Positions 14,113 through 64,000 of a DNA stretch of 64,000 nt are shown piece by piece. A model generated the notes under the pieces. That model had not been told where the DNA came from and did not search any database. It saw only the letters and a list, made by a program, of their open reading frames with translations. The position numbers and the translations under genes were made by a program. Within the stretch, counting starts at the first letter, position 1. Every line of letters begins with the position of its first letter. Source of the stretch: an uncultured Alphaproteobacteria bacterium. Its GTDB lineage: Bacteria > Pseudomonadota > Alphaproteobacteria > HIMB59 > GCA-002718135. The DNA lies in assembly GCA_902518705.1 (NCBI GenBank), contig CABYHW010000005.1, positions 1,101-65,100 on the forward strand, read 5' to 3'.

Positions 14113-15483
14113 TTATAAATCAAAAACCTTACCAGGATTTAAAATATTATTTGGATCAAAACTTTTCTTTATCAATTTCATTAATTGAATATTATCTGGG
14201 TGTTGTTTTAATAAATACTCTTTCTTTTGAAGACCTATACCGTGCTCGCCCGTTATAGTTCCATCCATTTCTAGCGCTTTATCAATTAATTTATTACTAA
14301 ATGATCTAATATATTTATATTCATTTTCTTTACCAGGATCATAGATAATAGATACATGAAAGTTTCCATCACCTACATGACCAACCATTGGTGCCTTTAA
14401 TCCAGTGTCTCTAAGTTCTGTTTCTGCAAATTTAATACATTCCACAATGTTTGAAATAGGTACACAAACATCAGTGACATAAACTCTAATGTTATCTCCT
14501 TCTGCTTTTACTGAATAATATACATTATGCCTTGCTTTCCAGATTTTGTTTCTTTCTTCTGTGTTTGCTGCCCACTTAAATTCACTGCCATTATTATTTT
14601 TTGAAATTTCTTCCACTACATCAATCGATTCTTTATTTGAATTTTCACTCCCATGAAACTCATAGAAAAGTGTAGGCAAACTTTCTAAATTTTCTAACTT
14701 TGAATATTTAATACTTATATCCATTTGATCTTTATTTAATAATTCTACTCTTGCAATTGGAACACCATACTGAATTATTTCTTGTGCCGTTAAAACAGCA
14801 GAGTCTAGATCTGGGAATTGACAAACAGCGCTAATGATACTTTCAGGTATAGGGGATAACCTTAGATGAACCTCAGTAATTATCCCAAGTGTTCCTTCTG
14901 AACCAACAAAAAGATTTGTTAAATTATATCCCGCAGAAGTTTTTTTTGCTCTACTTCCTGTTTTAATTATATCGCCATTCGCCATTACAACGGTTAAACC
15001 AAGAACACTTGTACGCATTGTTCCATACCTAACTGCCATCGTTCCTGAAGCAGAGCAGGCTGCCATACCCCCAAGAGAAGCGTTTGCACCTGGATCTATT
15101 GGAAAAAAAACCCCTTTATCTTTTAAAGTTTCATTTAATTGTTCCCTAGTTACATTTGCTTGTACTCGACAATCAAAATCAGCTTCATTTATTGAAATAA
15201 TTTTGTTAAAATTTTCCATTGAAACTGTAAAACCTTCATCATTTCCAACGACATGACCTTCTAATGATGTTCCTGTACCATAAGCAGTTACTGGTACTTT
15301 AAATTCATTACAAATTTTTATTATTTTTGAGAGTTCTTCATTATTATTTGGAAATAAAACTGCTCTAGGTAGAACAGGATCGTAAGCGTCCTCACCTTTT
15401 GCATGATTATTTCTTACACTTTCTGAAAATGATATTCTTTCTTGTAAAATATCTTTTAAATTGTCTAATAATCCTCTATCCAT
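14113..15483 (-). CDS. FAD-linked oxidase (GlcD / D-lactate dehydrogenase family)
   Basis: PCMH-type FAD-binding region with YGTGTSLEGH. C-terminal GEHGIG motif. 456 aa. Confidence 0.8.
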   Translation of the reverse strand: MDRGLLDNLKDILQERISFSESVRNNHAKGEDAYDPVLPRAVLFPNNNEELSKIIKICNEFKVPVTAYGTGTSLEGHVVGNDEGFTVSMENFNKIISINEADFDCRVQANVTREQLNETLKDKGVFFPIDPGANASLGGMAACSASGTMAVRYGTMRTSVLGLTVVMANGDIIKTGSRAKKTSAGYNLTNLFVGSEGTLGIITEVHLRLSPIPESIISAVCQFPDLDSAVLTAQEIIQYGVPIARVELLNKDQMDISIKYSKLENLESLPTLFYEFHGSENSNKESIDVVEEISKNNNGSEFKWAANTEERNKIWKARHNVYYSVKAEGDNIRVYVTDVCVPISNIVECIKFAETELRDTGLKAPMVGHVGDGNFHVSIIYDPGKENEYKYIRSFSNKLIDKALEMDGTITGEHGIGLQKKEYLLKQHPDNIQLMKLIKKSFDPNNILNPGKVFDL

Positions 15484-52680: not shown

Positions 52681-54426
52681 TTAATAAAGTGGATCATTTC
52701 CATTTGCTAGCATTTTTAGGGAACGCATTTCTTTATTATTTTTATTTTGGTAAATCCAATATTTTGTTAAGATTTTTTCAATAAACCACCTTGTTTCTCT
52801 TGAAGGAATACTTTCCATAAAGAAAAGTGAGTCTTCCATATAATTTGTTTCATTTTTCCATTTTTGTAAATTTCCTGGACCACCATTATATGCTGCTGCC
52901 AGAAATATAAGATTTCTTGAAACTTGCTCTAGATCAAGAAGGTACGTTAAGTATTCTTGTCCAACCTCTAAATTTATCTCTGGATTTTTAAGAATGTTAC
53001 TATTACTTCTTTTAACGTCTTTGCTTTTGGTGATAAATTTTGCCGTTGAAGGTAATACCTGCATTAAACCTATGGCACCGTCTTTACTTTTAGCTTTAAT
53101 ATTAAACATAGATTCTTGATGCATAAAGGCGTGAAGTAATTCTGTTTCTAATTTGAAACCATCTCTTGGTTTCCAGATACTTGTTGGGTAATAGAGGTAG
53201 GTTGGAACATCCATTCCAAAATTTTCGAGCTTATTGACAATTTTTAATTGCGTATAGGCTAGATCAAAATTTTCAGCAATTTGAATAGACTCCTTTGCTA
53301 TTTCTCTATTTAAAATGGAATTGATATGCACAATTTCCTTTTCTAACTCATCAGCAAATCCAACCTGTATTAGTGTCTGCATTCTTTTTCCTGCTGGTAT
53401 ATTTAAAATAGTACTATTATTCTTATTTAGATCAGTATGTTCTACCCATTCTATTTTTTCATCTACACCTAAAATTTCTAATGCAAGCATTCCATAAAAA
53501 CTATTTGGATTATTTGATGCTCTTTTTAACCAAAAATTAATATCATCATAACGACCAAGTTTTGCATATGATCTAGCTGTCCAAAAACTTCCTGACGTTT
53601 GATGCCACGCATCATCTTTTAAACTAATCGAAAAGAGAGAAAAATATTTTGCAGCATCTTCATATTTTTCTAGCCTCCAAGAAGATAAACCAGCAGTCCA
53701 AGCCGCATAAGGAACATATTTTGCAGAATTTACAAGAGCTTCAGAAGCGTATTGAATTGCCAAGTCATTTTTATTTGCTAAGAAATATCCTTTGGCGATT
53801 AATTCTTTTTGTTGATCTATCTCAACTTGATCTAATAATAGATCTACATCTCTTTGATTTAATAATTGTACTGCACCTGTCGGCCATCCTTTATTAACTC
53901 TTGATTTAATTCCTTTAATTAATTTTCTTTTTTCAGTTCTTTGATTGTTAGAGAGTTTTTTAGAACTTTTATATTTACTAGTCTTTTTACTGGTTACCTG
54001 TTCTGACTCTATTCCAATTGGAATGCTTGGTTTAGTCGGGCTTTTATAACCCTCTGGCATTCTTCGAATAGCCAATTTATAAATTTGTTTTGCTTGTGGG
54101 TGGTCATTATATTTTTTGAGCCAATAATATAGTTCTAAATACTTTGATCGATAACAATTTGGATGCAAAAACTTTTGTGCATAGATGTGTCCTAATAAAG
54201 ATTTATTTTTAATTTTTAAAATAAAATTGTTTGCACTTTTCCATTTGCATATATCTTGAAACTTGTATGCTTGTTGATAGTTATATACATCTTCTTCACT
54301 AAGAACCTTTGATGAGAATATATCATCGTATTTGGTGACTATATCTTGTTGGTATGAGTAGACTTGTTTTGAAAAAATTATAAAGAATACAAAAAAACAA
54401 AAAATTAAAAATTTTTTATGATACAT
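52681..54426 (-). CDS. slt: Soluble lytic murein transglycosylase (Slt70-like)
   Basis: Signal peptide, a superhelical repeat region, and a C-terminal SLT domain HQESMFN...SKDGAIGLMQV...AAYNGGPG. Confidence 0.85.
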   Translation of the reverse strand: MYHKKFLIFCFFVFFIIFSKQVYSYQQDIVTKYDDIFSSKVLSEEDVYNYQQAYKFQDICKWKSANNFILKIKNKSLLGHIYAQKFLHPNCYRSKYLELYYWLKKYNDHPQAKQIYKLAIRRMPEGYKSPTKPSIPIGIESEQVTSKKTSKYKSSKKLSNNQRTEKRKLIKGIKSRVNKGWPTGAVQLLNQRDVDLLLDQVEIDQQKELIAKGYFLANKNDLAIQYASEALVNSAKYVPYAAWTAGLSSWRLEKYEDAAKYFSLFSISLKDDAWHQTSGSFWTARSYAKLGRYDDINFWLKRASNNPNSFYGMLALEILGVDEKIEWVEHTDLNKNNSTILNIPAGKRMQTLIQVGFADELEKEIVHINSILNREIAKESIQIAENFDLAYTQLKIVNKLENFGMDVPTYLYYPTSIWKPRDGFKLETELLHAFMHQESMFNIKAKSKDGAIGLMQVLPSTAKFITKSKDVKRSNSNILKNPEINLEVGQEYLTYLLDLEQVSRNLIFLAAAYNGGPGNLQKWKNETNYMEDSLFFMESIPSRETRWFIEKILTKYWIYQNKNNKEMRSLKMLANGNDPLY

Positions 54427-55126
54427 TTTTTAATTTCTCTTGTAGCATTTGTAAATCTTCCCAAGAATGTTTTTTATACTGAGGAGATCGCAGTAAAAAA
54501 GCAGGATGATAGGAAGCTATTGTAGGAATTGATTCATCTAAATTGAGTGATTTGTATTCATGCAATTTACCTCTGAGTTTTCCAAGCGCTAGAGGCGTTG
54601 ATAAAATAGCTTTTGCTGCAACGCCTCCTAATAGAAAGATAAATTTTGGTTTAATAATATCAATTTGTCTTTGCAAAAATGGTAAAAATTCTAAAATTTC
54701 TTCATCATTAGGTGTTCTATTATCAGGCGGGCGCCAATTAACGACATTAGTAATGTAGACATCTTCTCTTTGTAAATTAATTGCTAAAAGCATTTTATTT
54801 AATAGTTGCCCAGCTCTCCCAACAAATGGAATACCTTGCTGATCCTCATCTCTTCCTGGAGCCTCACCTATTAACATAACTTTTGCATTTAAATTTCCAT
54901 CATAGACTACTAAATTTTTTGCAGTTTTTTGAAGATTAGATTTGTGATCTTTAAGGTCTTGAATCACATCATCAATTTTCTTTTTTTTATCCCCAGCATT
55001 GATATTGGGATCAGGTAATTCAGATTTTTTCTCATTTTCAAACCAGTTTCTTGGAGAATCTTGAAGAAAATAGTTTACTCCAGAATTAACTATGAATTCT
55101 AAATTTTTTTTATTTGATTGATTCAT
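54416..55126 (-). CDS. Uracil-DNA glycosylase, family 4
   Basis: GEAPGRDEDQQGIPFVGRAG and HPAFLLR motifs, with a ~70-aa N-terminal extension. Confidence 0.85.
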   Translation of the reverse strand: MNQSNKKNLEFIVNSGVNYFLQDSPRNWFENEKKSELPDPNINAGDKKKKIDDVIQDLKDHKSNLQKTAKNLVVYDGNLNAKVMLIGEAPGRDEDQQGIPFVGRAGQLLNKMLLAINLQREDVYITNVVNWRPPDNRTPNDEEILEFLPFLQRQIDIIKPKFIFLLGGVAAKAILSTPLALGKLRGKLHEYKSLNLDESIPTIASYHPAFLLRSPQYKKHSWEDLQMLQEKLKNVS

Positions 55127-55173
55127 GCAAAATTACAATTATCTATTCATAGTGTAACTCTAGTATATTTAAA

Positions 55174-56481
55174 ATGATTAATTTGATTAAAAAATGGTTT
55201 TTTATTTGTCTTCTTATCTCCTTCAATACTAGTGTTTTTGCAACAAATAGTTCTAACTTTTTAATCTCACAACTAGCCTTTAAAAATTATGATTATCCTG
55301 CAACATTATTGAATTTTAATGCCGATAAAATAAAACTATCACAAGACCAACTACTTGATAAAGCAATAGCGGCAATTATTACCGAAGACATTAATTTAGC
55401 CAAAGATATTGCTAATAAAATTTTGGAAAAAAACAAAAATAATCAAGAAGCATATATAATTAAAATTTCATCCTTATTTTTAGATAAAAAGTTTAATCAG
55501 ATAAAAGAATTACGAGATAATTTAGATCAACCAAATGAATTACTAGATTTTATTTTCTTCACAAATAATAGACTTAAGGATGGTACTACCATTAGTCGTT
55601 CACTTGTTGAAATTGTTGCATCATCTTTTTCAAACAATGAGCAAAGACGTTTAAATTATAATTTCTTATTATTTTATGCTTCACTTGCCAAATTAACTGA
55701 TCCTAAAAATGAAAGAGCAATAATTATTAAGGCTGAACTATTTGATCAAGTTGGTCAATTCGAAGTGGCAAGAGATACTTTGGAGAAGATAAGGAAGGAA
55801 AGTCCATATTATTTAGATGCACAAAGTAGTTTAGCAATAAATTATTTATATAATAGTTCATATGAAGATGCTGAAAATAAAATTTTATCTATTCTACAAA
55901 ATAACAATAACAATTATTCTCTTAAAAAAATTCTTGGTGACTTTTATCGGTACAATAAAAAATATGATTTAGCTTTATCAATTTATAACCAGATGATTGA
56001 AGAAAACCGCGGTGACGTTTGGAATATATATTATATGAGAGGGATATGTTTTGAACAATTAGGTGATTGGGATTTGGCAGAAAAAGATTTTTTAAAATCA
56101 CTTGAAATAAAACCTGATAGTCCAAATGTATTAAATTATCTTGCATATGGTTGGGTTGAAAGAGAAATGAAATTAGATCGTTCTTTGCAAATGTTAGAAG
56201 AAGCATATGAAGCTAACCCTGAGAGTTTCTATATTATTGACAGTCTTGCTTGGGCACATTTTAAAAAAAATAATCTTTCAGAAGCTGCTCGTTTAATGGA
56301 AATGGTAATAGATATTGCGCCAGGTGAAGCAATATCTCTAGACCATCTCGGAGATATTTATTATGCTATGAATAGAAAAAGAGAAGCTATTCATTTCTGG
56401 CAACAAGCTCTAGAATTAGCTGAACCTGAAGATGAAATTGAAGAAAATGTAAAAATTAAATTAGAAAAATTTAATGGATAA
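55174..56481 (+). CDS. Periplasmic TPR-repeat protein
   Basis: Signal peptide. TPR-like 34-aa repeats in the C-terminal half (e.g. WNIYYMRGICFEQLGDWDLAEKDFLKSLEIKPDSP). Confidence 0.7.
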   Translation: MINLIKKWFFICLLISFNTSVFATNSSNFLISQLAFKNYDYPATLLNFNADKIKLSQDQLLDKAIAAIITEDINLAKDIANKILEKNKNNQEAYIIKISSLFLDKKFNQIKELRDNLDQPNELLDFIFFTNNRLKDGTTISRSLVEIVASSFSNNEQRRLNYNFLLFYASLAKLTDPKNERAIIIKAELFDQVGQFEVARDTLEKIRKESPYYLDAQSSLAINYLYNSSYEDAENKILSILQNNNNNYSLKKILGDFYRYNKKYDLALSIYNQMIEENRGDVWNIYYMRGICFEQLGDWDLAEKDFLKSLEIKPDSPNVLNYLAYGWVEREMKLDRSLQMLEEAYEANPESFYIIDSLAWAHFKKNNLSEAARLMEMVIDIAPGEAISLDHLGDIYYAMNRKREAIHFWQQALELAEPEDEIEENVKIKLEKFNG

Positions 56482-57307
56482 TAGTATTACTGAGAAATCG
56501 CCTGCAAAAATAAATTTATTTCTTAAAATTTTAAATCGAAGAGAAGATAATTACCATAATATTAGAACAGGAATAACCAGTATTAATTTATGTGATGAAA
56601 TAGAGGTAAAACCAAGCAACCAATTTAATGTTGCATACAATGGTGCATTTGCTCCAGAAAATAATATATTTGATGATTGTATTATAAAAAAAATATTTAG
56701 TTTTTTGAATATCTCACCTCCCAACATTTCGTTTTCAATTACAAAAAACTTTCCCTATCAAGCTGGATTGGGCTCGGCATCTTCAAATGCAGCAACGGTA
56801 ATAAAGATCCTAGAAAATCTAGAAATTATTAATAAAAAAAATATTTTTGACTATACAGATTTAGGTTCTGATATTCCTTTCTTTCTTAATCAACACGATA
56901 GCTTGGTAAGAGGAAGAGGAGACTTAATCTCAAATATTGTCTTCCCAAAATATTTTTTCTTAATAACAAAACCTAATTTTAATTGCTCCACAAAAAAAAT
57001 GTACGACACATTCATTCCTTCTGATTTTGATTATAATGTCGAGGAAGATATTGAAGAAATTAATGATAACGATAACGGGAATGATTTTGAAAAAGTAATT
57101 AAAAAACTCGAGCCTGATTTTAATGCTATTTATAATAAGATGGATAATTTAGAAGATACTATTTTTACAAGACTAACAGGTAGTGGATCATGTATTTTTT
57201 CAGTTTTTGAAAATAAACTTACAGCTGAAAATGCAAAAAATTCTTTTCTTAAAACTTATCCAAATTTATGGGTAGCAGTTGCTGAAAATAATAATATAAA
57301 ATTATAA
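56474..57307 (+). CDS. ispE: 4-diphosphocytidyl-2-C-methyl-D-erythritol kinase
   Basis: PAKINLFLKI N-terminus and GHMP motif GLGSASSNAA. 8-nt overlap with the TPR gene. Confidence 0.9.
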   Translation: MDNSITEKSPAKINLFLKILNRREDNYHNIRTGITSINLCDEIEVKPSNQFNVAYNGAFAPENNIFDDCIIKKIFSFLNISPPNISFSITKNFPYQAGLGSASSNAATVIKILENLEIINKKNIFDYTDLGSDIPFFLNQHDSLVRGRGDLISNIVFPKYFFLITKPNFNCSTKKMYDTFIPSDFDYNVEEDIEEINDNDNGNDFEKVIKKLEPDFNAIYNKMDNLEDTIFTRLTGSGSCIFSVFENKLTAENAKNSFLKTYPNLWVAVAENNNIKL

Positions 57308-57958
57308 AATTTTATGTTTCTCAAATACGGCTGTTAAACTATCACCTTTTTTTAGTTCATCTCTAACAGTATTTTCACTACTTACTTTTTCTAGAGCTTT
57401 TCTTATTACTTCATCAATAACTTTAGATGGTAAAATAACAACACCATCATTATCGCCAAATACCAAATCTCCACTTTCAACATAGACATTTGCTATTTCG
57501 CCTGGCACATCTGCCATCATCATTTTACCTCTAAATTTTGTATCAACAGGATTAGTGCCTTTTGCAAAAACTGGAAAACCAATTTCATTAATCATTTTTG
57601 TATCACGAACACAGCCATCTGTTAAACAACCTGCTGATTTTAAATAAGTTGCTCGAGTTGATAATAATTCTCCCCATGGAGCTATCTTTTCATTTCCATG
57701 ACAACATAAAACAGCAATTTCATTTTCTCTTAAACTATCAATCAATGCTATTTCATGCTCGTAAACATTTGTATTTTCATCATCATGATAAATAGGCATA
57801 TACAAACCAACTCTCGCAAGCCCACATATAATTACATCTGGTTTTATTGATTTGATACCAGGTGTTAATGTTTGCTTATGATAACCCAAACTATCTAATG
57901 TATCAGCTAATACAGCTGAATAAAGTTTCGTTTTATATTCTTCAAAATTAAGAGTCAT
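57302..57958 (-). CDS. RraA-family protein (HMG/CHA aldolase / oxaloacetate decarboxylase-like)
   Basis: 218 aa. GELLSTRA and DNDGVVILP motifs typical of the RraA/dimethylmenaquinone-methyltransferase-like fold. Confidence 0.7.
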   Translation of the reverse strand: MTLNFEEYKTKLYSAVLADTLDSLGYHKQTLTPGIKSIKPDVIICGLARVGLYMPIYHDDENTNVYEHEIALIDSLRENEIAVLCCHGNEKIAPWGELLSTRATYLKSAGCLTDGCVRDTKMINEIGFPVFAKGTNPVDTKFRGKMMMADVPGEIANVYVESGDLVFGDNDGVVILPSKVIDEVIRKALEKVSSENTVRDELKKGDSLTAVFEKHKIL

Positions 57959-58046
57959 TTTTTTTTGAATTTATTTATATTATCAATTTACTTATTCGTA
58001 TAACATCATACTATTATAAAGTGGTCAAGTTAGTTTTATATAAATA

Positions 58047-59051
58047 ATGATTTATAATATTTTAATAATTGGAGCGGGTGGAATTGGTAAAAGACATATT
58101 AAAGGTTATTTGGGAACTAGCAGAGCTAAAATTTCTATTGTTGAACCAGATGTTAATAAACAAAAAAACTTAAATAGTGAATTTGAAATTCAACATACAT
58201 TTAATTCTCTTGATGAAGTTAATCAAAAATTTGATATAGCAATAATATGTTCGCCAGCTAATTGGCATCTGGAACATATTCAGTTTTGTATAAAAAATAA
58301 TCTATCATTTATGGTAGAAAAACCTCTTTCTACAAAAATTGATGGTCTGGAAAACATTATAGAAGAGGTCAGAGAAAAAAAATTGTTTGTTCGTGTAGGA
58401 TATACAAGAAGAAATAGCTTTGTCTCCAGAGCCTTAAAAGATCAAATTATGAATAATAAAATCGGAGAAGTTAAATTAGCTTATATTAATTCTTCTCAAG
58501 AGTTTCCTAAATATAGGCCAGATTATCAAACTATTTATTATGCAAAAGAAGAAACCGGCGGTGGAGCCATACTTGATGCTTCTACTCATATGATTGATCA
58601 ATTAATTTGGATATTGGGCATTCCTGAAGAGGTAGGCTGTATGTACGACAGATTAGTATTAGAGGGTACAGAAACTGAGGATACTTGTCTTATTAATATA
58701 AAATTTTCTAATGGATGTTTAGCCAACATAACTGTTAATCAATTTCAGAAACCAAATATTAATACATATGAGTTTGTTGGCACTAAAGGTAATATTAAAC
58801 TTGATCATTCTACTTTAATGTTTGCTGATGATGATAGTGGTGTTTGGAAAGATCAGAAAGATTATATGAAGGGTCAAGATCCAATGGAAGTACATCAGAA
58901 TAATTTTCTATTACAGGCAAACAGATTTTTAGATGGTTATGAAGGCAAGGATTGTGATTTAGCAACTTTAGAAGAAGCTTATTTAAATTTAAAAGTTGTA
59001 TTAGCTGCTAAATTGTCTTGGAAAGATAAAAAAATAATTAAAATCAGTTAA
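58047..59051 (+). CDS. Gfo/Idh/MocA-family NAD(P) oxidoreductase
   Basis: ILIIGAGGIGKRH Rossmann motif and the MVEKPL (EKP) motif. Confidence 0.8.
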   Translation: MIYNILIIGAGGIGKRHIKGYLGTSRAKISIVEPDVNKQKNLNSEFEIQHTFNSLDEVNQKFDIAIICSPANWHLEHIQFCIKNNLSFMVEKPLSTKIDGLENIIEEVREKKLFVRVGYTRRNSFVSRALKDQIMNNKIGEVKLAYINSSQEFPKYRPDYQTIYYAKEETGGGAILDASTHMIDQLIWILGIPEEVGCMYDRLVLEGTETEDTCLINIKFSNGCLANITVNQFQKPNINTYEFVGTKGNIKLDHSTLMFADDDSGVWKDQKDYMKGQDPMEVHQNNFLLQANRFLDGYEGKDCDLATLEEAYLNLKVVLAAKLSWKDKKIIKIS

Positions 59052-59052
59052 G

Positions 59053-59832
59053 ATGATTAGTTTGAAAAATAAAAATATTTTTATTGCTGGAGGTAGTGGA
59101 TATCTTGGTTCAGTTTTATGTGAAGAAATATTGAAACTAGAAGGAAATATATTTTTAGCCGATCAAGACATCAAAAGATCTAAATTAGTAATAAAAAAAT
59201 TACAAAAAAAATACCCTAAAAGTAAAATTATATTCTCTCACTTAAATATGATTGAGCCTGAGTCAATTTCTAAAAATATTAAATTAGCTTATCAAAAATT
59301 TAAATATATAGATGGATTAGTTAACGCAACATTTGGATCAACTTCTGATAAGCTATCTGAATTAACTGCAGAAAAATTTAATAAAGCTAATCAAATTAAT
59401 TTAACGGGCTCTTTTTTACTTATGAGAGGTGTGGCAAATAAAATGAAAAAAGGTGGAAGTATCGTAATGTTTGCTTCAATGTATGGATTAGTATCACCAA
59501 AAATGGAAATGTATCCAAAAAATATTAATCCTAATCCCATTGAATATGGTGCTGGAAAAGCTGGTCTAAACCAAATGGTAAAATATTTTTCCTCGTATTA
59601 TGGTAAAAATAATATTCGTATTAATGCAATTGTACCTGGGCCTTTTCCAAACATAACTAAGGCTGCAAACAATAATAAAAAATTTTTGAGTAATTTAAAA
59701 AATTCTACAATGTTAAAACGTTTTGGTAAACCTATCGAAACCGCAAAACCAACAATTTTTCTTTTATCTGATGCATCAAGTTATATGACGGGTCATTCAC
59801 TTATAGTTGATGGTGGTTGGACAGCGTGGTAA
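59053..59832 (+). CDS. Short-chain dehydrogenase/reductase
   Basis: IAGGSGYLGS cofactor motif and YGAGKAG catalytic YxxxK. Confidence 0.75.
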   Translation: MISLKNKNIFIAGGSGYLGSVLCEEILKLEGNIFLADQDIKRSKLVIKKLQKKYPKSKIIFSHLNMIEPESISKNIKLAYQKFKYIDGLVNATFGSTSDKLSELTAEKFNKANQINLTGSFLLMRGVANKMKKGGSIVMFASMYGLVSPKMEMYPKNINPNPIEYGAGKAGLNQMVKYFSSYYGKNNIRINAIVPGPFPNITKAANNNKKFLSNLKNSTMLKRFGKPIETAKPTIFLLSDASSYMTGHSLIVDGGWTAW

Positions 59833-59845
59833 GTGATATTAATTA

Positions 59846-60805
59846 ATGACTCAGTTTCCCATAGAAAATAAAAAAATCAAATTAGCAATGCTAGGAATGA
59901 CGGAAGGAAATGGACATCCTTACTCATGGAGCATAATTATTAACGGTCGATATAACGCTGAAGCATTAGCACAATGTCCTTATGCAGCAATTATTGATTA
60001 TATTTCAAAGCAACCAAAAAATACTCTAGGTATAAAAGATGTAGAAGTTTCACATGTATGGACAGATAATCCTGAGGATGCAAAACTTGTCGCTAAAGTT
60101 GCAGAAATTGAAAATATTGTTGAAGATCCAAAAGATGTGATTGGACAAGTCGATGCAGTTTTAGTTGCAACTGATATTGGTTCAGAGCATGTTGAGAGGT
60201 GTAAACCATTCGTTGAGGCAAATGTACCAATCTTTGTTGATAAACCACTATGCGATAATTTTACTGATCTAAAAATTTTTCAACAGTGGATTGATGAAGG
60301 AAAGCCGATAATTAGTTCCTCTGCAATGCGATATTGTAAAGAGTACGAGCCATACCATCAATCAACTTACGAACTAGGTGATTTAAGATACATTAATGTC
60401 ACTATGGCAAAAAGTTGGGAAAAATATGGGATACACGCTTTAGAAACATTATATCCAATAGTTGGTCCAGGCTTTACCTCAATACAAAATCTAGGAGATA
60501 AAGATAGAAATATTGTTCATTTACATCATTCAAAAGGTATTGATATCAATATTGCTAATGTCTTTGATATGATTGGAGGTTTTGGTCTTGTTTCTTTAGT
60601 TGGAACTAAAAGTGGAATACAAATAAAATCAAATGATACTTTTTATGCATTTAAAAAACAATTAGAGTCATACGTTCATTATTTACGAACAGGTGTAAAA
60701 CCAGTTCCATGGGAGGAAACCAAAGAATTAATGCAACTTGTTGCTGCTGGTATAAAGAGTAGAGAAGAGGGTGGAATTAAAATTAATTTAAGTGAGGTTA
60801 GTTAG
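59846..60805 (+). CDS. Gfo/Idh/MocA-like oxidoreductase with an atypical N-terminal nucleotide motif
   Basis: KLAMLGMTEGNGHPYSWS replaces GxGxxG. FVDKPL is at the EKP position. 319 aa. Confidence 0.55.
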   Translation: MTQFPIENKKIKLAMLGMTEGNGHPYSWSIIINGRYNAEALAQCPYAAIIDYISKQPKNTLGIKDVEVSHVWTDNPEDAKLVAKVAEIENIVEDPKDVIGQVDAVLVATDIGSEHVERCKPFVEANVPIFVDKPLCDNFTDLKIFQQWIDEGKPIISSSAMRYCKEYEPYHQSTYELGDLRYINVTMAKSWEKYGIHALETLYPIVGPGFTSIQNLGDKDRNIVHLHHSKGIDINIANVFDMIGGFGLVSLVGTKSGIQIKSNDTFYAFKKQLESYVHYLRTGVKPVPWEETKELMQLVAAGIKSREEGGIKINLSEVS

Positions 60806-61597
60806 ATGAATGTTTTAGAAAGTTTTTCTTTAAAAGGTAAAGTTGCACTTGTTACTGGAGGTGCTGGACTTTACGGGAGACAAATAGTGGAAGCATTAGC
60901 TGAAGCTGGAGCAGATACATATATAGCTTCACGAAATATTGAAAGTTTACAACAAGTAGCAGAAGAAGAAACAAAACGAGGCTATAAAGTTACTGCATTA
61001 CAATTAGATTTATCTGAGGATGACTCAATCGAAAAATTATACAATGACATTATTGAGAAAAGTGGAAAATGTGATGTCTTGATAAATAATGCAGTTTCCA
61101 GAGAGCATGGCAGTCTTGGTTGGGACAATAGTCTAGATGACTTTGATAAAAGTTTAAGAATAAATGCATCAGCATTATTTAAAATTACAAATATGTTTGC
61201 TGAAGGAATGAAAAAAAATAAATCTGGATCTATTATAAATATTGGATCAATGATGGGTACTGTTGGTGTAGAAAATGGCAATTATGAAGGTACAGATTTC
61301 AAACCTGCTACTTCACCTCTCTACTTTTATGAAAAAGGTGGAATGCACAATTTTACAAGATGGGCAGCAAGTATGTTAGGACCTCATAATATTCGGGTAA
61401 ATTGTTTGGCACCAGGAGGTTTCAAAGTTCCTTCACATCCAGATAGGTTTGTAGAGAATTATAGCAAAAGAACGCAGTTAGGTAGAATGGCTAATAGCAC
61501 TGATCTAAAAGGGCCAATTATTTTTTTAGCGTCAGACTCATCCGCTTACTTAACAGGAACAATAATTGCAGTTGATGGTGGATATACTGCAAAATAA
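60806..61597 (+). CDS. Short-chain dehydrogenase/reductase
   Basis: VTGGAGLYG, NNAV and a possible YFYEK catalytic YxxxK. 0-nt gap to the upstream gene. Confidence 0.75.
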   Translation: MNVLESFSLKGKVALVTGGAGLYGRQIVEALAEAGADTYIASRNIESLQQVAEEETKRGYKVTALQLDLSEDDSIEKLYNDIIEKSGKCDVLINNAVSREHGSLGWDNSLDDFDKSLRINASALFKITNMFAEGMKKNKSGSIINIGSMMGTVGVENGNYEGTDFKPATSPLYFYEKGGMHNFTRWAASMLGPHNIRVNCLAPGGFKVPSHPDRFVENYSKRTQLGRMANSTDLKGPIIFLASDSSAYLTGTIIAVDGGYTAK

Positions 61598-61614
61598 ATA
61601 AAGGGAGAAATATT

Positions 61615-62439
61615 ATGACGAGATATGATAGAACAATGGCAAAAGTAAGCAAAAAACCTTTTGATACTTTTAGAGAAAGTAGAATCAAAAGAACTACAAA
61701 TGAAGGTAAAGTAGCAATAACCTTAAAATGTAATACCTCAGATACAAAAGTTGCCGAAATTTTTTCTCTTGCTCAACCAGACGCAATTTGGCTCGATATG
61801 GAACACGGATCTTTGGATTACACTCAAGCAGAGAATCAAGTTAATGCTGCTAAAATATATGATGTTGATGCAATCTTACGAGTATCTAGAGGTAGTTATA
61901 GTTCTTATATCAGAGGATTAGAAATAGATTGTGCTGGTTTAGTAATTCCACAAATTAAAAACTATGAAGATGCAAAATTTGTTAGAGATAGCACAAAATT
62001 TCCTCCTATAGGACACCGAGGTTTAGATGGAGGTAATAATGATGGTAAGTATGCCAGATTAGATATTGAAGAGTATTTAACAAAATCTAATGAAGAAAGA
62101 CTCGTAATTTATCAAATTGAAACACCAGAAGCATTTGATCATATAGAAGCAATTGCAGAAATGGAAGGTGTTGATGGTTTATTCTTTGGGCCTGGAGATT
62201 ATTCACTAGCTTTAGGTGTTCCTGGACAAATGGATCATCCAGAAGTTTCTAAAGTAAGAAAACTAGTTGCAGAACTTGCAAGGAAACATAATAAAATTGC
62301 AGCAACACCAGGTGGACCAAATATTGCCTCTGAATATATCGATATGGGATATAATCTCTTAAATATCGGTTCTGACGTTATAGGACTAACGAACTATGCA
62401 GAGGAGCTTATAAATACATTTGATAAAATAAATTCTTAA
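61615..62439 (+). CDS. HpcH/HpaI-family class II (2-keto-3-deoxy acid) aldolase
   Basis: 274 aa. IWLDMEHG and FFGPGDYSLALG motifs typical of the HpcH/HpaI/GarL aldolase family. GGGAGA upstream of the ATG. Confidence 0.75.
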   Translation: MTRYDRTMAKVSKKPFDTFRESRIKRTTNEGKVAITLKCNTSDTKVAEIFSLAQPDAIWLDMEHGSLDYTQAENQVNAAKIYDVDAILRVSRGSYSSYIRGLEIDCAGLVIPQIKNYEDAKFVRDSTKFPPIGHRGLDGGNNDGKYARLDIEEYLTKSNEERLVIYQIETPEAFDHIEAIAEMEGVDGLFFGPGDYSLALGVPGQMDHPEVSKVRKLVAELARKHNKIAATPGGPNIASEYIDMGYNLLNIGSDVIGLTNYAEELINTFDKINS

Positions 62440-63719
62440 TGGATTTGAGTGAAATTCAAAATACTATTTTAGATAGACGAATTAAAGGTATTCCAGGCTC
62501 AAGTGAGCCATTTCCACTTAAAGAACTTAAAAATAAAAATTGGAATATTTTGAAAGAAGATATGCCAATGCCATTAATGGTATTAAAACAAAAAAATTAT
62601 CTTCATAACTTAAAAACTTTTTCAAATTATTTAGAAAAACACAATTTACATATTTCTCCTCATGGTAAAACAACAATGGCCCCTCAGATTTTTTCTGAGC
62701 AGATAAAACATGGTGCATGGGGCATTACAGCTGGTGCCATTAACCAAATTCAAGTTATGTTTGATTTTGGTATTAATAAAGTTTTACTTGCTAATCAACT
62801 TTTAGGTAAATCGCATTTAGAAACAATAGCATCATATATTAATCAAAATAAAAATTTTTCTTTTTATTGTTTTGTTGATTCTATTGAACAGTTTTTAAAT
62901 ATTAAAAAAAATCTTGGTGATCAAAATTTAACCAATCCAATAAATTTATTGCCTGAAATAGGTGCAGAAAATGGAAGAACAGGTATACGTAAAAAAGAAG
63001 ATTTTTTAAAACTCGTTAATATAATTGGAGAGGACTCATCAAAGAATTTTACTTTTGCAGGTATATCTTCTTATGAGGGCATAGCGGCTGTTGCTATGAA
63101 AGGTTCAAATGCTGTGCATGAATTTTGTTCAAAGATTGAGGATATTATTAATGATATTCCTTCAAATTATTACTCTCATCTAAATGAATTATTAATTACG
63201 GCTGGCGGATCAACTCATTTTGATATTGTAGGAGAAAGATTTTCTAAAATCAAACTCAGTGTTCCTATTAAAGTACTATTACGAAGTGGATGTTATATTA
63301 CACATGATCATGGGCCTTACTTAGATGCACTTGAAACAGCTAAAAGTGATTCCAATAGACAATGGGATCAATCTCTACAACCAGCTCTTGAAATTTGGTC
63401 GTATGTACAATCAATTCCTGAAAATAATCTTGCCTTTCTAACCATGGGAAAACGAGATGCTCCCTATGATTCAGGTTTACCAAAACCTATAAAAAGATTT
63501 AGACCTGGTGAAGGTTTCTTAGATATTGGTGAAGCAGAAATATTTAGCACAAATGATCAGCATGCCTTTGTTAAACTTGCTGATAATCATCAATGGAAAG
63601 TAGGGGATATGATTTGTTCTGGTATTTCACATCCATGCACAGCATTTGATAAATGGAAGTTTATTCCAGTTGTTGATGATGACTATAATGTTCTTGATGG
63701 AATATTAACTTATTTTTAA
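62439..63719 (+). CDS. Fold-type III PLP enzyme (D-serine dehydratase-like / amino acid deaminase or aldolase)
   Basis: Alanine-racemase-N-like barrel with a candidate PLP lysine in SPHGKTTM. The C-terminal beta-domain contains HPC. 426 aa. Confidence 0.6.
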   Translation: MDLSEIQNTILDRRIKGIPGSSEPFPLKELKNKNWNILKEDMPMPLMVLKQKNYLHNLKTFSNYLEKHNLHISPHGKTTMAPQIFSEQIKHGAWGITAGAINQIQVMFDFGINKVLLANQLLGKSHLETIASYINQNKNFSFYCFVDSIEQFLNIKKNLGDQNLTNPINLLPEIGAENGRTGIRKKEDFLKLVNIIGEDSSKNFTFAGISSYEGIAAVAMKGSNAVHEFCSKIEDIINDIPSNYYSHLNELLITAGGSTHFDIVGERFSKIKLSVPIKVLLRSGCYITHDHGPYLDALETAKSDSNRQWDQSLQPALEIWSYVQSIPENNLAFLTMGKRDAPYDSGLPKPIKRFRPGEGFLDIGEAEIFSTNDQHAFVKLADNHQWKVGDMICSGISHPCTAFDKWKFIPVVDDDYNVLDGILTYF

Positions 63720-64000
63720 TTATCCTTCTTGTCTAGTATTTGGTGCATAAGCAACACAATCAAGCTCAAATTTTAAGAAAGTAGGCAGCACTTTTACAAT
63801 TGTACTTCTTGTTGGTAGCGGATCTTTAAAATATTCAGGATATATTTTATTATATTCTTTTAAATCTTTTTGATCAGCTACGTAACCTTTTACATTAATA
63901 ACATGATCCAAGGTCAGACCTGCTTCTTTTAAAATTACTTCTAAATTTTCAATTGAACGTCTCATTTCTTCTTCAAATGTTCCTTCAATGACTGACCCAT
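63720..64000 (-). CDS. ridA: RidA/YjgF-family enamine/imine deaminase (N-terminus beyond the window edge)
   Basis: The minus-strand frame stays open upstream of the track Met (..GSVIEGTFEEEMRRSIENL..), matching the RidA core. PTRSTI and the C-terminal ELDCVA are typical of the family. Confidence 0.75.
   Translation of the reverse strand, partial: GSVIEGTFEEEMRRSIENLEVILKEAGLTLDHVINVKGYVADQKDLKEYNKIYPEYFKDPLPTRSTIVKVLPTFLKFELDCVAYAPNTRQEG

Follow-up and report, generated by a model that had tools for sequence, protein, structure and literature searches.

The closest described relative of the system reported here is the ong cluster of Pseudoalteromonas prydzensis ACAM 620, which serves the catabolism of oxidised chitin (Jiang et al. 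2022, Nat Commun 13:5899; PMC9537276). In this pathway, OngB deacetylates N-acetylglucosaminate, OngC, a fold-type-III pyridoxal phosphate (PLP) enzyme of 415 aa, converts D-glucosaminate to 2-keto-3-deoxygluconate (KDG) and NH3 and also acts on D-Ser and D-Thr, the RidA protein OngD is essential for N-acetylglucosaminate catabolism, and KdgK phosphorylates KDG (PMC9537276). The supplementary tables of that study list further ong clusters in Ralstonia and Achromobacter, with the consecutive genes kdgK-ongC-ongR-ongB-ongD (PMC9537276). Here we describe a six-gene operon and an adjoining RidA gene at the end of a 64,000-nt stretch of DNA (the window; contig CABYHW010000005.1, positions 1,101 to 65,100) from an uncultured alphaproteobacterium. 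The source assembly is that of a small-genome marine alphaproteobacterium (1.16 Mb, 71% complete), and the G+C content is about 30% throughout the window. The operon encodes four putative dehydrogenases (Gfo1, SDR1, Gfo2 and SDR2), an HpcH/HpaI aldolase and a fold-type-III PLP enzyme, and near-identical relatives carry further genes behind it.

The locus resembles ong in the N-deacetylation of an N-acetyl-aminoaldonic acid, the deamination by a fold-type-III PLP enzyme to a 2-keto-3-deoxy acid and the adjacent RidA, all of which are here predicted from the genes. As in ong, the PLP gene is clustered with RidA and a deacetylase gene; here RidA abuts it, and in relatives the deacetylase gene lies two to three genes further on. 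Unlike in ong, this deacetylase is NagA-like and not D-aminoacylase-like. Moreover, an HpcH aldolase gene that overlaps the PLP gene stands in place of the KDG kinase, so that the route would be non-phosphorylative. The island lacks the RpiR regulator, GH20 hexosaminidase, TonB receptor and SSS carrier of ong, whereas it adds five dehydrogenases, two sialidase-fold proteins, two Cys-rich small proteins, major facilitator superfamily (MFS) and ABC carriers, to which nanAEK is joined in the marine lineage.

Other known routes resemble the locus in part. The non-phosphorylative 6-deoxy-sugar pathways (L-rhamnose LRA1-4; YfaU/RhmA) likewise lead from a sugar 1-dehydrogenase of the short-chain dehydrogenase (SDR) family through a 2-keto-3-deoxy-aldonate to an HpcH-family aldolase that yields pyruvate and an aldehyde. 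However, they use an enolase-superfamily or IlvD-type dehydratase, while here the PLP ammonia-lyase and RidA would start from an amino acid. Meanwhile, the island shares with canonical sialic-acid catabolism NanA, NanE, a NanK-like kinase, sialidase-fold proteins, an MFS carrier, a Gfo/Idh/MocA enzyme and a NagA homologue, but the PLP enzyme, RidA and the HpcH aldolase play no part in the canonical route (NanA, NanK, NanE, NagA, NagB), whose accessories are a sialidase, the carriers NanT/NanX and the oxidoreductase NanY. Orthology to the NanXY system for 2,7-anhydro-sialic acid was rejected, as Gfo1 is 24% identical to Escherichia coli NanY (E 2e-8 in a pairwise comparison) and neither Gfo2 nor the MFS carrier has a significant match to NanY or NanX. 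We propose that the island encodes a kinase-free catabolism of an N-acetylated amino sugar, probably one released from sialic or nonulosonic acids or related to them, with the operon and RidA as its proximal 6.7 kb. We assign this reading a probability of roughly 0.55, each of its steps being drawn from homology and gene context.

The operon lies entirely on the plus strand. It begins with Gfo1, a canonical Gfo/Idh/MocA NAD(P) oxidoreductase of 334 aa with three Pfam domains (58047..59051), followed by SDR1, a classical SDR of 259 aa (59053..59832; Pfam adh_short_C2, E 4e-42), Gfo2, a strongly divergent protein of 319 aa with a predicted Gfo/Idh/MocA fold (59846..60805; PF01408 only, 34 bits), and SDR2, an SDR of 263 aa resembling gluconate-5-dehydrogenase and KduD (60806..61597; Pfam adh_short, E 9e-38). 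The last two genes encode a putative class II metal-dependent pyruvate aldolase of the HpcH/HpaI family, of 274 aa (61615..62439; Pfam HpcH_HpaI, E 3e-26), and the PLP enzyme, a 426-aa member of the 3GWQ 'amino acid deaminase' family (62439..63719; PF14031, E 1e-14). The intergenic gaps are 1, 13, 0, 17 and -1 nt, the last base of the HpcH gene doubling as the first of the PLP start codon. A RidA-type enamine/imine deaminase gene (63720..64000, minus strand; Pfam Ribonuc_L-PSP, E 3e-16) converges on the PLP gene with a gap of 0 nt, its stop codon starting at 63720 right behind the PLP stop, and has its C-terminal 92 aa in the window. The contig runs 242 nt past the window; these complete RidA, a protein of 129 aa whose gene ends 109 nt beyond the window, and also hold the C-terminus of another SDR on the minus strand. 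An earlier note, made from the letters of this DNA, had described six co-directional genes behind an 88-bp divergent spacer, a convergent RidA and an RraA-like flank. The open reading frame map agrees with it to the base, and Pfam and NCBIfam uphold all of its family assignments, that of Gfo2 through the N-terminal Rossmann model alone. The note had also considered that the cluster may continue past position 64000, and near-identical relatives do carry further genes there.

The arrangement is conserved far beyond the window. Of 37 genomes of the same genus, 7 carry the PLP gene, which all 24 genomes of the sister family lack, and those carriers in the genus whose contig reaches far enough have identical genes in identical order. 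Comparison with related genomes, as suggested in the earlier note, showed the genes to be syntenic, with order and orientation kept. The order Gfo1-SDR1-Gfo2-SDR2-HpcH-PLP recurs at 45-70% protein identity in Devosia riboflavina, D. rhodophyticola, a Caenibius metagenome-assembled genome and three long metagenome contigs, and is present in 9 of 10 examined members of the PLP clade. Since order and orientation are kept at such identities in three alphaproteobacterial lineages and three metagenome contigs, the gene arrangement is far beyond chance. In addition, at least 14 seawater metatranscriptomes contain 34-45% of the 31-mers of the operon, and metatranscriptome contigs of 97-99% identity span the SDR1|Gfo2|SDR2, SDR2|HpcH, HpcH|PLP and PLP|RidA junctions. 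The gene row is real, conserved and, going by these contigs, transcribed in seawater.

The extent of the island was determined by comparing the AG-891-K05 genome (G268, 96% complete) with two congeneric genomes from which the PLP gene is missing. In these two, the gene right behind ispE is the orthologue of one that G268 has 30.6 kb farther along. Therefore, the operon and RidA are the first 6.7 kb of a flexible island of about 30.6 kb inserted after ispE. We also observed that the left flank (52681-57307), compared with the island-free loci L114 and L115, decays in identity toward the island, the protein identities being 96% for a lytic transglycosylase, 89% for uracil-DNA glycosylase, 74% for a TPR protein and 65% for IspE, while on the far side identity is back to 94-96%. 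This suggests that the island arrived, or is maintained, together with a divergent left flank.

The content of the island was read from relatives that are 95-98% identical to the window over the shared genes. In these, the proximal part continues with RidA, sometimes a GntR-headed regulator of 331-337 aa, a further dehydrogenase (SDR3), an amidohydrolase of 392 aa and two small proteins (sm1 and sm2), and then with two BNR_2 proteins that flank an MFS carrier. A block of about 15 genes is kept in Devosia, Caenibius and metagenome contigs, whose islands add a GntR/FCD regulator, a Dpp/Opp-type ABC system, an MlrC/M81 peptidase and a PhyH dioxygenase; the PLP gene and RidA of D. rhodophyticola are separated by a CE7 acetyl esterase. 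Meanwhile, the distal half of the marine island holds two PanB-like genes, PhyH genes, class IV and class III aminotransferases, a gene resembling dihydrodipicolinate synthase (DHDPS), MlrC, a NanK-like ROK kinase (213 bits), NanE (278 bits, cut-off 189), NanA (285.7 bits, cut-off 281) and a Dpp-type ABC system. The adjacent nanA-nanE-nanK genes were found in the island of a relative that is 96-98% identical. Between the binding protein of the marine ABC system and its counterpart next to the six-gene operon of Devosia-type islands, identity is 53-62%, and for this reason both ends of the marine island are, by sequence, taken to belong to one conserved gene set. The absence of a kinase, a transporter and a regulator, which the earlier note had remarked on, holds for the window, and relatives carry a transporter, a regulator and further enzymes beyond the contig end. 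Within about 10 kb of the operon, no kinase was found in any island copy, and no PfkB.

The PLP enzyme is central to the proposed route. Its closest relative in the PDB is 3GWQ (E 7e-82, aligned end to end), whereas D-threonine aldolases match at E 1e-18 or worse. Both 3GWQ and the enzyme of the window are 426 aa long and share the motifs PHGKTT and ISHPC. The entry 3GWQ is a 'D-serine deaminase' of Burkholderia xenovorans from structural genomics, labelled as a cryptic D-serine dehydratase; in the literature searched no function has been published for it, and the papers that mention the entry do not characterise it. A D-ser_dehydrat domain (PF14031) occupies residues 316-412, and homologues also match PF01168, which corresponds to the fold-type-III architecture, in which the D-ser_dehydrat domain comes C-terminally after an alanine-racemase-like barrel. 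At E <1e-20, the enzyme matches more than 6,800 database proteins, most of them named 'amino acid deaminase' or 'D-serine dehydratase', and the corresponding protein clusters from metagenomes contain 600-670 member sequences. K77 (in PHGKTT) and the motif S-H398-P-C400 are invariant in 12 homologues. D-threonine aldolase binds its metal via His and Asp, while chicken D-serine dehydratase does so via His and Cys (PMC4401734). The enzyme of the window thus appears to have the dehydratase-type H-x-C and not the aldolase-type H-x-D, the equivalence of the motif positions being an inference, as the C-termini are left unaligned by HMMER. We predict that it is a 2-amino-2-deoxy-aldonate ammonia-lyase/dehydratase.

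The neighbourhoods of this enzyme family point in the same direction. We examined 80 loci from named genomes, 76 of them outside the island clade, and counted the genes found up to 8 kb away from the PLP gene. Among the 76 loci, these included D-aminoacylase (31), RidA (26), RpiR (19), GntP permease (17), a family-5 binding protein (16) and PfkB kinase (14). The gene order in Ralstonia, Herbaspirillum and Glaciimonas is GntP-RidA-D-aminoacylase-RpiR | PLP-PfkB, and in Ralstonia this is the ong cluster listed by Jiang et al. for that genus. The PLP enzyme of the window is 33-41% identical to the members that stand in the place of ongC in ong-type clusters, among them those of Ralstonia, Achromobacter and Herbaspirillum; for the ongC-position genes of Ralstonia and Achromobacter, which serve as a proxy for OngC (PPRY_b0288) itself, the value is 36-37%. 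In a maximum-likelihood tree, the enzyme of the window and the island copies form a separate clade with 100% support, which includes a Frigidibacter enzyme as sister of the island clade (52% identity). RidA lies within 8 kb of the PLP gene in 6 of 9 island copies examined. The full-length RidA scores 92.7 bits against a TIGR00004 cut-off of 106.25 and has the P-T-R101-S motif, whose arginine would be the binder of the substrate carboxylate (Arg105 in enterobacterial numbering).

The aldolase shows the features expected of an HpcH/HpaI class II pyruvate aldolase. With a Pfam score of 92.5 bits (cut-off 25), it has its best PDB match in the 2-keto-3-deoxy-sugar aldolase YfaU (E 3e-28) and stays under every NCBIfam equivalog cut-off (HpaI, GarL, RhmA). 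Aligned to HpaI (4b5s), it keeps all four residues H45, R70, E149 and D175, of which His45 and Arg70 are presumably catalytic and Glu149 and Asp175 metal ligands. Separately, we observed a gene-sized mosaic at 61350-62550 of the window, comprising the HpcH gene and about 100 nt on either side. Nucleotide identity to the AG-891-K05 relative (L017) is 69-81% in this tract versus 93-99% across the remaining operon. Two HpcH aldolase alleles, with 69-72% protein identity, circulate in otherwise near-identical operons: one in the window, L012 and L014, the other in L010, L011, L013, L017 and L018; that of L019 (76%) is also unlike the one of the window.

The amidohydrolase encoded further on in the island matches E. 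coli NagA (E 1e-32), with E131, H143, H195, H216 and D273 conserved. At the position of NagA R227, which we take to be the phosphate-binding residue, it has an Asp beside a five-residue insertion. It scores 199 bits against a nagA cut-off of 225.65 and so falls outside NagA membership, and genuine nagA genes (251-302 bits) exist elsewhere in the genome of the window, in G268 and in D. rhodophyticola. Because Arg227 appears to be replaced, the nagA cut-off is missed and genuine nagA genes lie elsewhere, this protein is plausibly a specialised NagA paralogue for a non-phosphorylated substrate. An OngB-type deacetylase was considered and rejected, the protein being NagA-like and not of the D-aminoacylase type. 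No nagB of the TIGR00502 type was found in G268 or in the genome of the window, where SIS-type deaminases were not searched for, even though nanA, nanE, a nanK-like gene and a genuine nagA occur. As for SDR3, it passes the cut-off of a 'glucose 1-dehydrogenase' subfamily, and its best PDB relatives are gluconate-5- and glucose-1-dehydrogenases. The idea that it is nearest to N-acylmannosamine 1-dehydrogenase was rejected, since that enzyme is not among its top 60 PDB matches.

The BNR_2 proteins model as six-bladed propellers with Asp-boxes. Their nearest solved structure is an uncharacterised Dyadobacter protein, and the next structural relatives include many GH33 sialidases, among them a Pseudomonas pseudaminidase. 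The two BNR_2 paralogue groups have three invariant arginines in common, and show no RIP motif and no invariant Tyr or Glu; on reading the N-terminus, no signal peptide was evident. Together with NanA/NanE/NanK, the shared ABC binding protein and the acetyl esterase of one island copy, these sialidase-fold proteins point to a sialic- or nonulosonic-acid source of the hexosamine.

Based on these findings, we postulate the following route. An ABC transporter with a family-5 binding protein and/or the MFS carrier would take up the substrate, and the cytoplasmic sialidase-fold proteins together with NanA (or the HpcH aldolase) would free an N-acetylhexosamine. One of the sugar dehydrogenases of the island may then oxidise C1 to give an N-acetyl-aminoaldonic acid, from which the NagA paralogue, apparently without the phosphate-binding arginine, would remove the acetyl group. 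The PLP enzyme would carry out an alpha,beta-elimination on the 2-amino-3-hydroxy acid, as OngC does on D-glucosaminate, RidA would hydrolyse the enamine/imine to a 2-keto-3-deoxy-aldonate, and the Mg/Mn-dependent HpcH aldolase would cleave this product to pyruvate and an aldehyde. The probable role of Gfo1, SDR1, Gfo2 and SDR2 is to epimerise or oxidise the sugar itself or compounds made from it. The core of this scheme, namely oxidation, deamination/dehydration by the PLP enzyme, RidA and aldol cleavage on a glucosaminate-type substrate, had been suggested in the earlier note. It finds support in the ong precedent within the same PLP family and further backing in the NagA-like deacetylase, the lack of a kinase within about 10 kb, the H-x-C motif and the four catalytic residues of the aldolase. 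We think it doubtful that the island goes as far as an oxidative route that is complete, needs no kinase and serves the hexosamine moiety of sialic acids or bacterial nonulosonic acids. In that case, the candidate substrates would be N-acetylmannosamine (ManNAc) or the 6-deoxy-di-N-acetylhexosamines from legionaminic and pseudaminic acids, in which phosphorylation at C6 is impossible.

Several observations weigh against this proposal. The 71%-complete assembly of the window has none of the remaining island genes, including the distal ones, which are inferred from the 95-98% identical relatives. The adjacency of nanAEK is limited to the marine lineage, and the reading of R227 as Asp depends on a single loop of a pairwise HMMER alignment. 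The aldonic acid of ManNAc would be L at C2, while the known substrates of such fold-type-III dehydratases have the D-configuration. No dehydrogenase is needed in the ong pathway, yet the island has five, four of which the scheme leaves without a step. The link to the OngC family rests on gene context and on the genera named in the supplement of the ong paper. The metatranscriptome contigs fit a polycistronic message, although DNA carry-over is possible. Furthermore, OngC also acts on D-Ser and D-Thr, so that membership of the family does not fix the substrate (PMC9537276).

This last point leads to the main rival, in which the PLP enzyme and RidA catabolise D-Ser, D-Thr or another beta-hydroxy-D-amino acid that MlrC/M81 peptidases and amidohydrolases release from imported peptides or from N-acyl-D-amino acids, while the dehydrogenases and the aldolase serve a separate, neighbouring sugar-acid pathway. 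Besides the deamination of D-Ser and D-Thr by OngC (PMC9537276), the recurrence of an MlrC peptidase and a Dpp/Opp-type ABC system in most island copies would agree with it, as would the class IV (D-amino-acid/branched-chain-type) aminotransferase of the marine island. The Frigidibacter member of the clade also speaks for this alternative and against a sugar route: its surroundings hold four MlrC genes, RidA, a D-aminoacylase, a peptide-type ABC system and an SDR, but neither an aldolase nor a Gfo gene. However, the start of the PLP gene overlaps the stop of the HpcH gene, and the marine lineage, Devosia and Caenibius all keep the six-gene order at 45-70% identity, which speaks for a single pathway. 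The formation of pyruvate or 2-oxobutyrate from D-Ser or D-Thr requires no aldolase, and the NagA-like deacetylase, the sialidase-fold proteins, the CE7 esterase of D. rhodophyticola and nanAEK indicate carbohydrates. Family-5 binding proteins, moreover, carry sugars and opines too. We therefore regard the catabolism of D-amino acids as unlikely.

The possibility that the compound degraded is an aminocyclitol or some other polyol-amine (an inosamine, a rhizopine-like compound or an aminoglycoside fragment), the hydroxyls of whose ring would be the target of the Gfo/Idh/MocA and SDR enzymes, while the PLP enzyme would act on an amino acid formed by ring opening, was raised by Gfo1, whose best NCBIfam model is inositol 2-dehydrogenase, and by the structural neighbours of Gfo2, among which are inositol dehydrogenases as well as KanD2 and GenD2, two aminoglycoside enzymes. 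Dioxygenases of the PhyH type, to which KanJ belongs, also recur in the island. Yet the scores are far under the family cut-offs (108 versus 355 bits), ring-opening enzymes of the IolE, IolD and IolB types are absent from every island copy examined, and the NagA-like deacetylase, the sialidase-fold proteins, nanAEK and the ong-type relatives of the PLP enzyme would be left unexplained, making this very unlikely. We attach hardly any credence to a PLP enzyme that acts as a retro-aldolase of the D-threonine-aldolase or 3-hydroxy-D-aspartate-aldolase type, giving glycine and an aldehyde beside a RidA that is a mere housekeeping gene. Its single NCBIfam match is indeed the 3-hydroxy-D-aspartate aldolase BhcC, and D-threonine aldolases come next after 3GWQ in the PDB. 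Nevertheless, the BhcC score is 62 bits against a cut-off of 690, and similarity to the aldolases is at least 50 orders of magnitude weaker than to 3GWQ. The identity as a simple D-threonine aldolase, which the earlier note had held out as an alternative, is not borne out by the H-x-C found in place of H-x-D. RidA is linked to the PLP family in 26 of 76 non-island loci and abuts the PLP gene here without a spacer, and the characterised relative OngC is a deaminase.

The nearest NCBIfam models of Gfo1 are inositol 2-dehydrogenase (108 bits, cut-off 355) and UDP-GlcNAc 3-dehydrogenase. Its PDB matches (E 1e-15 to 1e-11) are 3q2i on top, which we believe to be WlbA and which the search output labels merely 'dehydrogenase', followed by TM0414 and inositol dehydrogenases. 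The best NCBIfam models of SDR1, PRK09186 and a PtmA-like model, are both under cut-off. SDR2 matches PRK08213 (185 bits, cut-off 279) and KduD (157 bits), and is the best-conserved dehydrogenase of the operon, with 64-68% identity to its counterparts in Devosia and Caenibius. Meanwhile, Gfo2 displayed a different picture. Its usual glycine loop is replaced by LGMTEGNGHPYSW (reading GMTEGNGH), with DKPL kept; no C-terminal Pfam model matches it, a phmmer search against the PDB gave no match, and a profile search of the PDB gave marginal matches only, the best being PmdC at E 0.0025. Its AlphaFold2 (AF2) model has a pLDDT of 82.7, and Foldseek leads from it to Gfo/Idh/MocA dehydrogenases with a TM of about 0.7 and 12-18% identity, so the protein is confidently modelled with a Gfo/Idh/MocA fold. 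Among 401 sampled Alphaproteobacteria, its orthologues are confined to its own genus. Homologues elsewhere, 28-30% identical, likewise adjoin SDR1- and SDR2-like genes, which hints at a working pair of a Gfo-like protein and an SDR.

On the other side of the operon, the RraA-like or HMG-CHA-aldolase-family protein of 218 aa (57302..57958, minus strand; Pfam RraA-like, E 3e-27) comes first in the island. Its gene is transcribed away from the operon and overlaps the stop of ispE by 6 nt; the protein stays under every NCBIfam cut-off and has its best PDB match in 3k4i, an uncharacterised entry. An RraA-like gene adjoining Gfo1, 68-79% conserved, is found in AG-457-A08, D. rhodophyticola and contig L110, and is missing from the other island copies. 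The divergent spacer of 88 bp between this gene and Gfo1 (57959-58046) contains a block at 57999..58028 (TATAACAnCATACTATT ... TGGTCAA) that is invariant between the window and its relatives, while the remaining spacer has diverged; we infer from this that the block is a candidate operator or promoter. Scans for promoters and terminators in this AT-rich DNA gave no excess of matches over shuffled sequence.

The island copies displayed other peculiarities. The genes sm1 and sm2 are adjacent and overlapping, and encode paralogous Cys-rich proteins of about 165 aa (L017:13665-14165 and 14162-14647, both on the plus strand; L013:9427-10406). They always stand behind the NagA-like gene and are 56-86% conserved out to Devosia. 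No family could be assigned to them, the hints being sub-threshold only (ATC_hydrolase, E 0.12; V4R-like MsvR C-terminal domain, E 5e-4). In Devosia sp. ZB163 (L088), a module of SDR3, the NagA-like gene, sm1 and sm2 occurs with RidA and MlrC beside another member of the PLP family, 34% identical, at a locus without aldolase or Gfo genes; therefore, the halves of the island can combine independently. The family-5 solute-binding protein (L113:15189-16835, minus; L020:2140-3717, minus) matches its profiles in swapped order, residues ~325-540 corresponding to the N-terminal part of the SBP_bac_5/Opp models and residues ~40-240 to the C-terminal part, and could be a circular permutation. The MFS carrier of the Devosia and Caenibius type is fused to a C-terminal HEAT-repeat domain, with a length of 750-790 aa (L015:15667-17922, L020:17757-20126, L110:16801-19110), whereas that of the marine lineage has 441 aa and is unfused. 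Finally, the two tandem PanB-like genes of the marine island (ketopantoate hydroxymethyltransferase family; L113:732-2422, minus) are below the panB cut-offs and 39-43% identical to the panB of the genome itself (C5:9644-10450).

The three core families and the logic of deacetylation, deamination and RidA are already known. The literature that we searched (on 3GWQ, glucosaminate ammonia-lyase, MlrC with RidA, mannosaminate/galactosaminate and sialic acid in AEGEAN-169) holds no description of the island, nor of the combination of these elements with an exit through a class II aldolase, a deacetylase of the NagA type, five dehydrogenases and sialidase-fold proteins. This combination sits in a mobile island of marine oligotrophs and soil Hyphomicrobiales. 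If the island did encode the complete route that we think doubtful, this would imply undescribed specificities, namely an N-acetylhexosamine 1-dehydrogenase and a NagA paralogue acting on non-phosphorylated N-acetyl-aminoaldonates, along with an ammonia-lyase of the OngC type that works together with a class II aldolase, cytoplasmic sialidase-fold enzymes and a divergent Gfo-like protein partnered with SDRs. The island also offers testable functions for the 3GWQ-type 'amino acid deaminases', the NagA paralogue, the divergent Gfo-like family, the Cys-rich small proteins and the cytoplasmic sialidase-fold proteins, and its cultivable carriers (Devosia) are open to genetics.

Amino sugars and their oxidised and acidic forms make up a large share of marine dissolved organic nitrogen, and, to our knowledge, their use by streamlined oligotrophs is poorly known. 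The lineage that carries the island is common in metagenomes, and the complete kinase-free route, if real, would run in abundant small-genome marine Alphaproteobacteria. With the island, a small-genome marine alphaproteobacterium would obtain both ammonia and carbon, the latter as two pyruvates per hexosamine, from these compounds and would not have to spend ATP on activating them.

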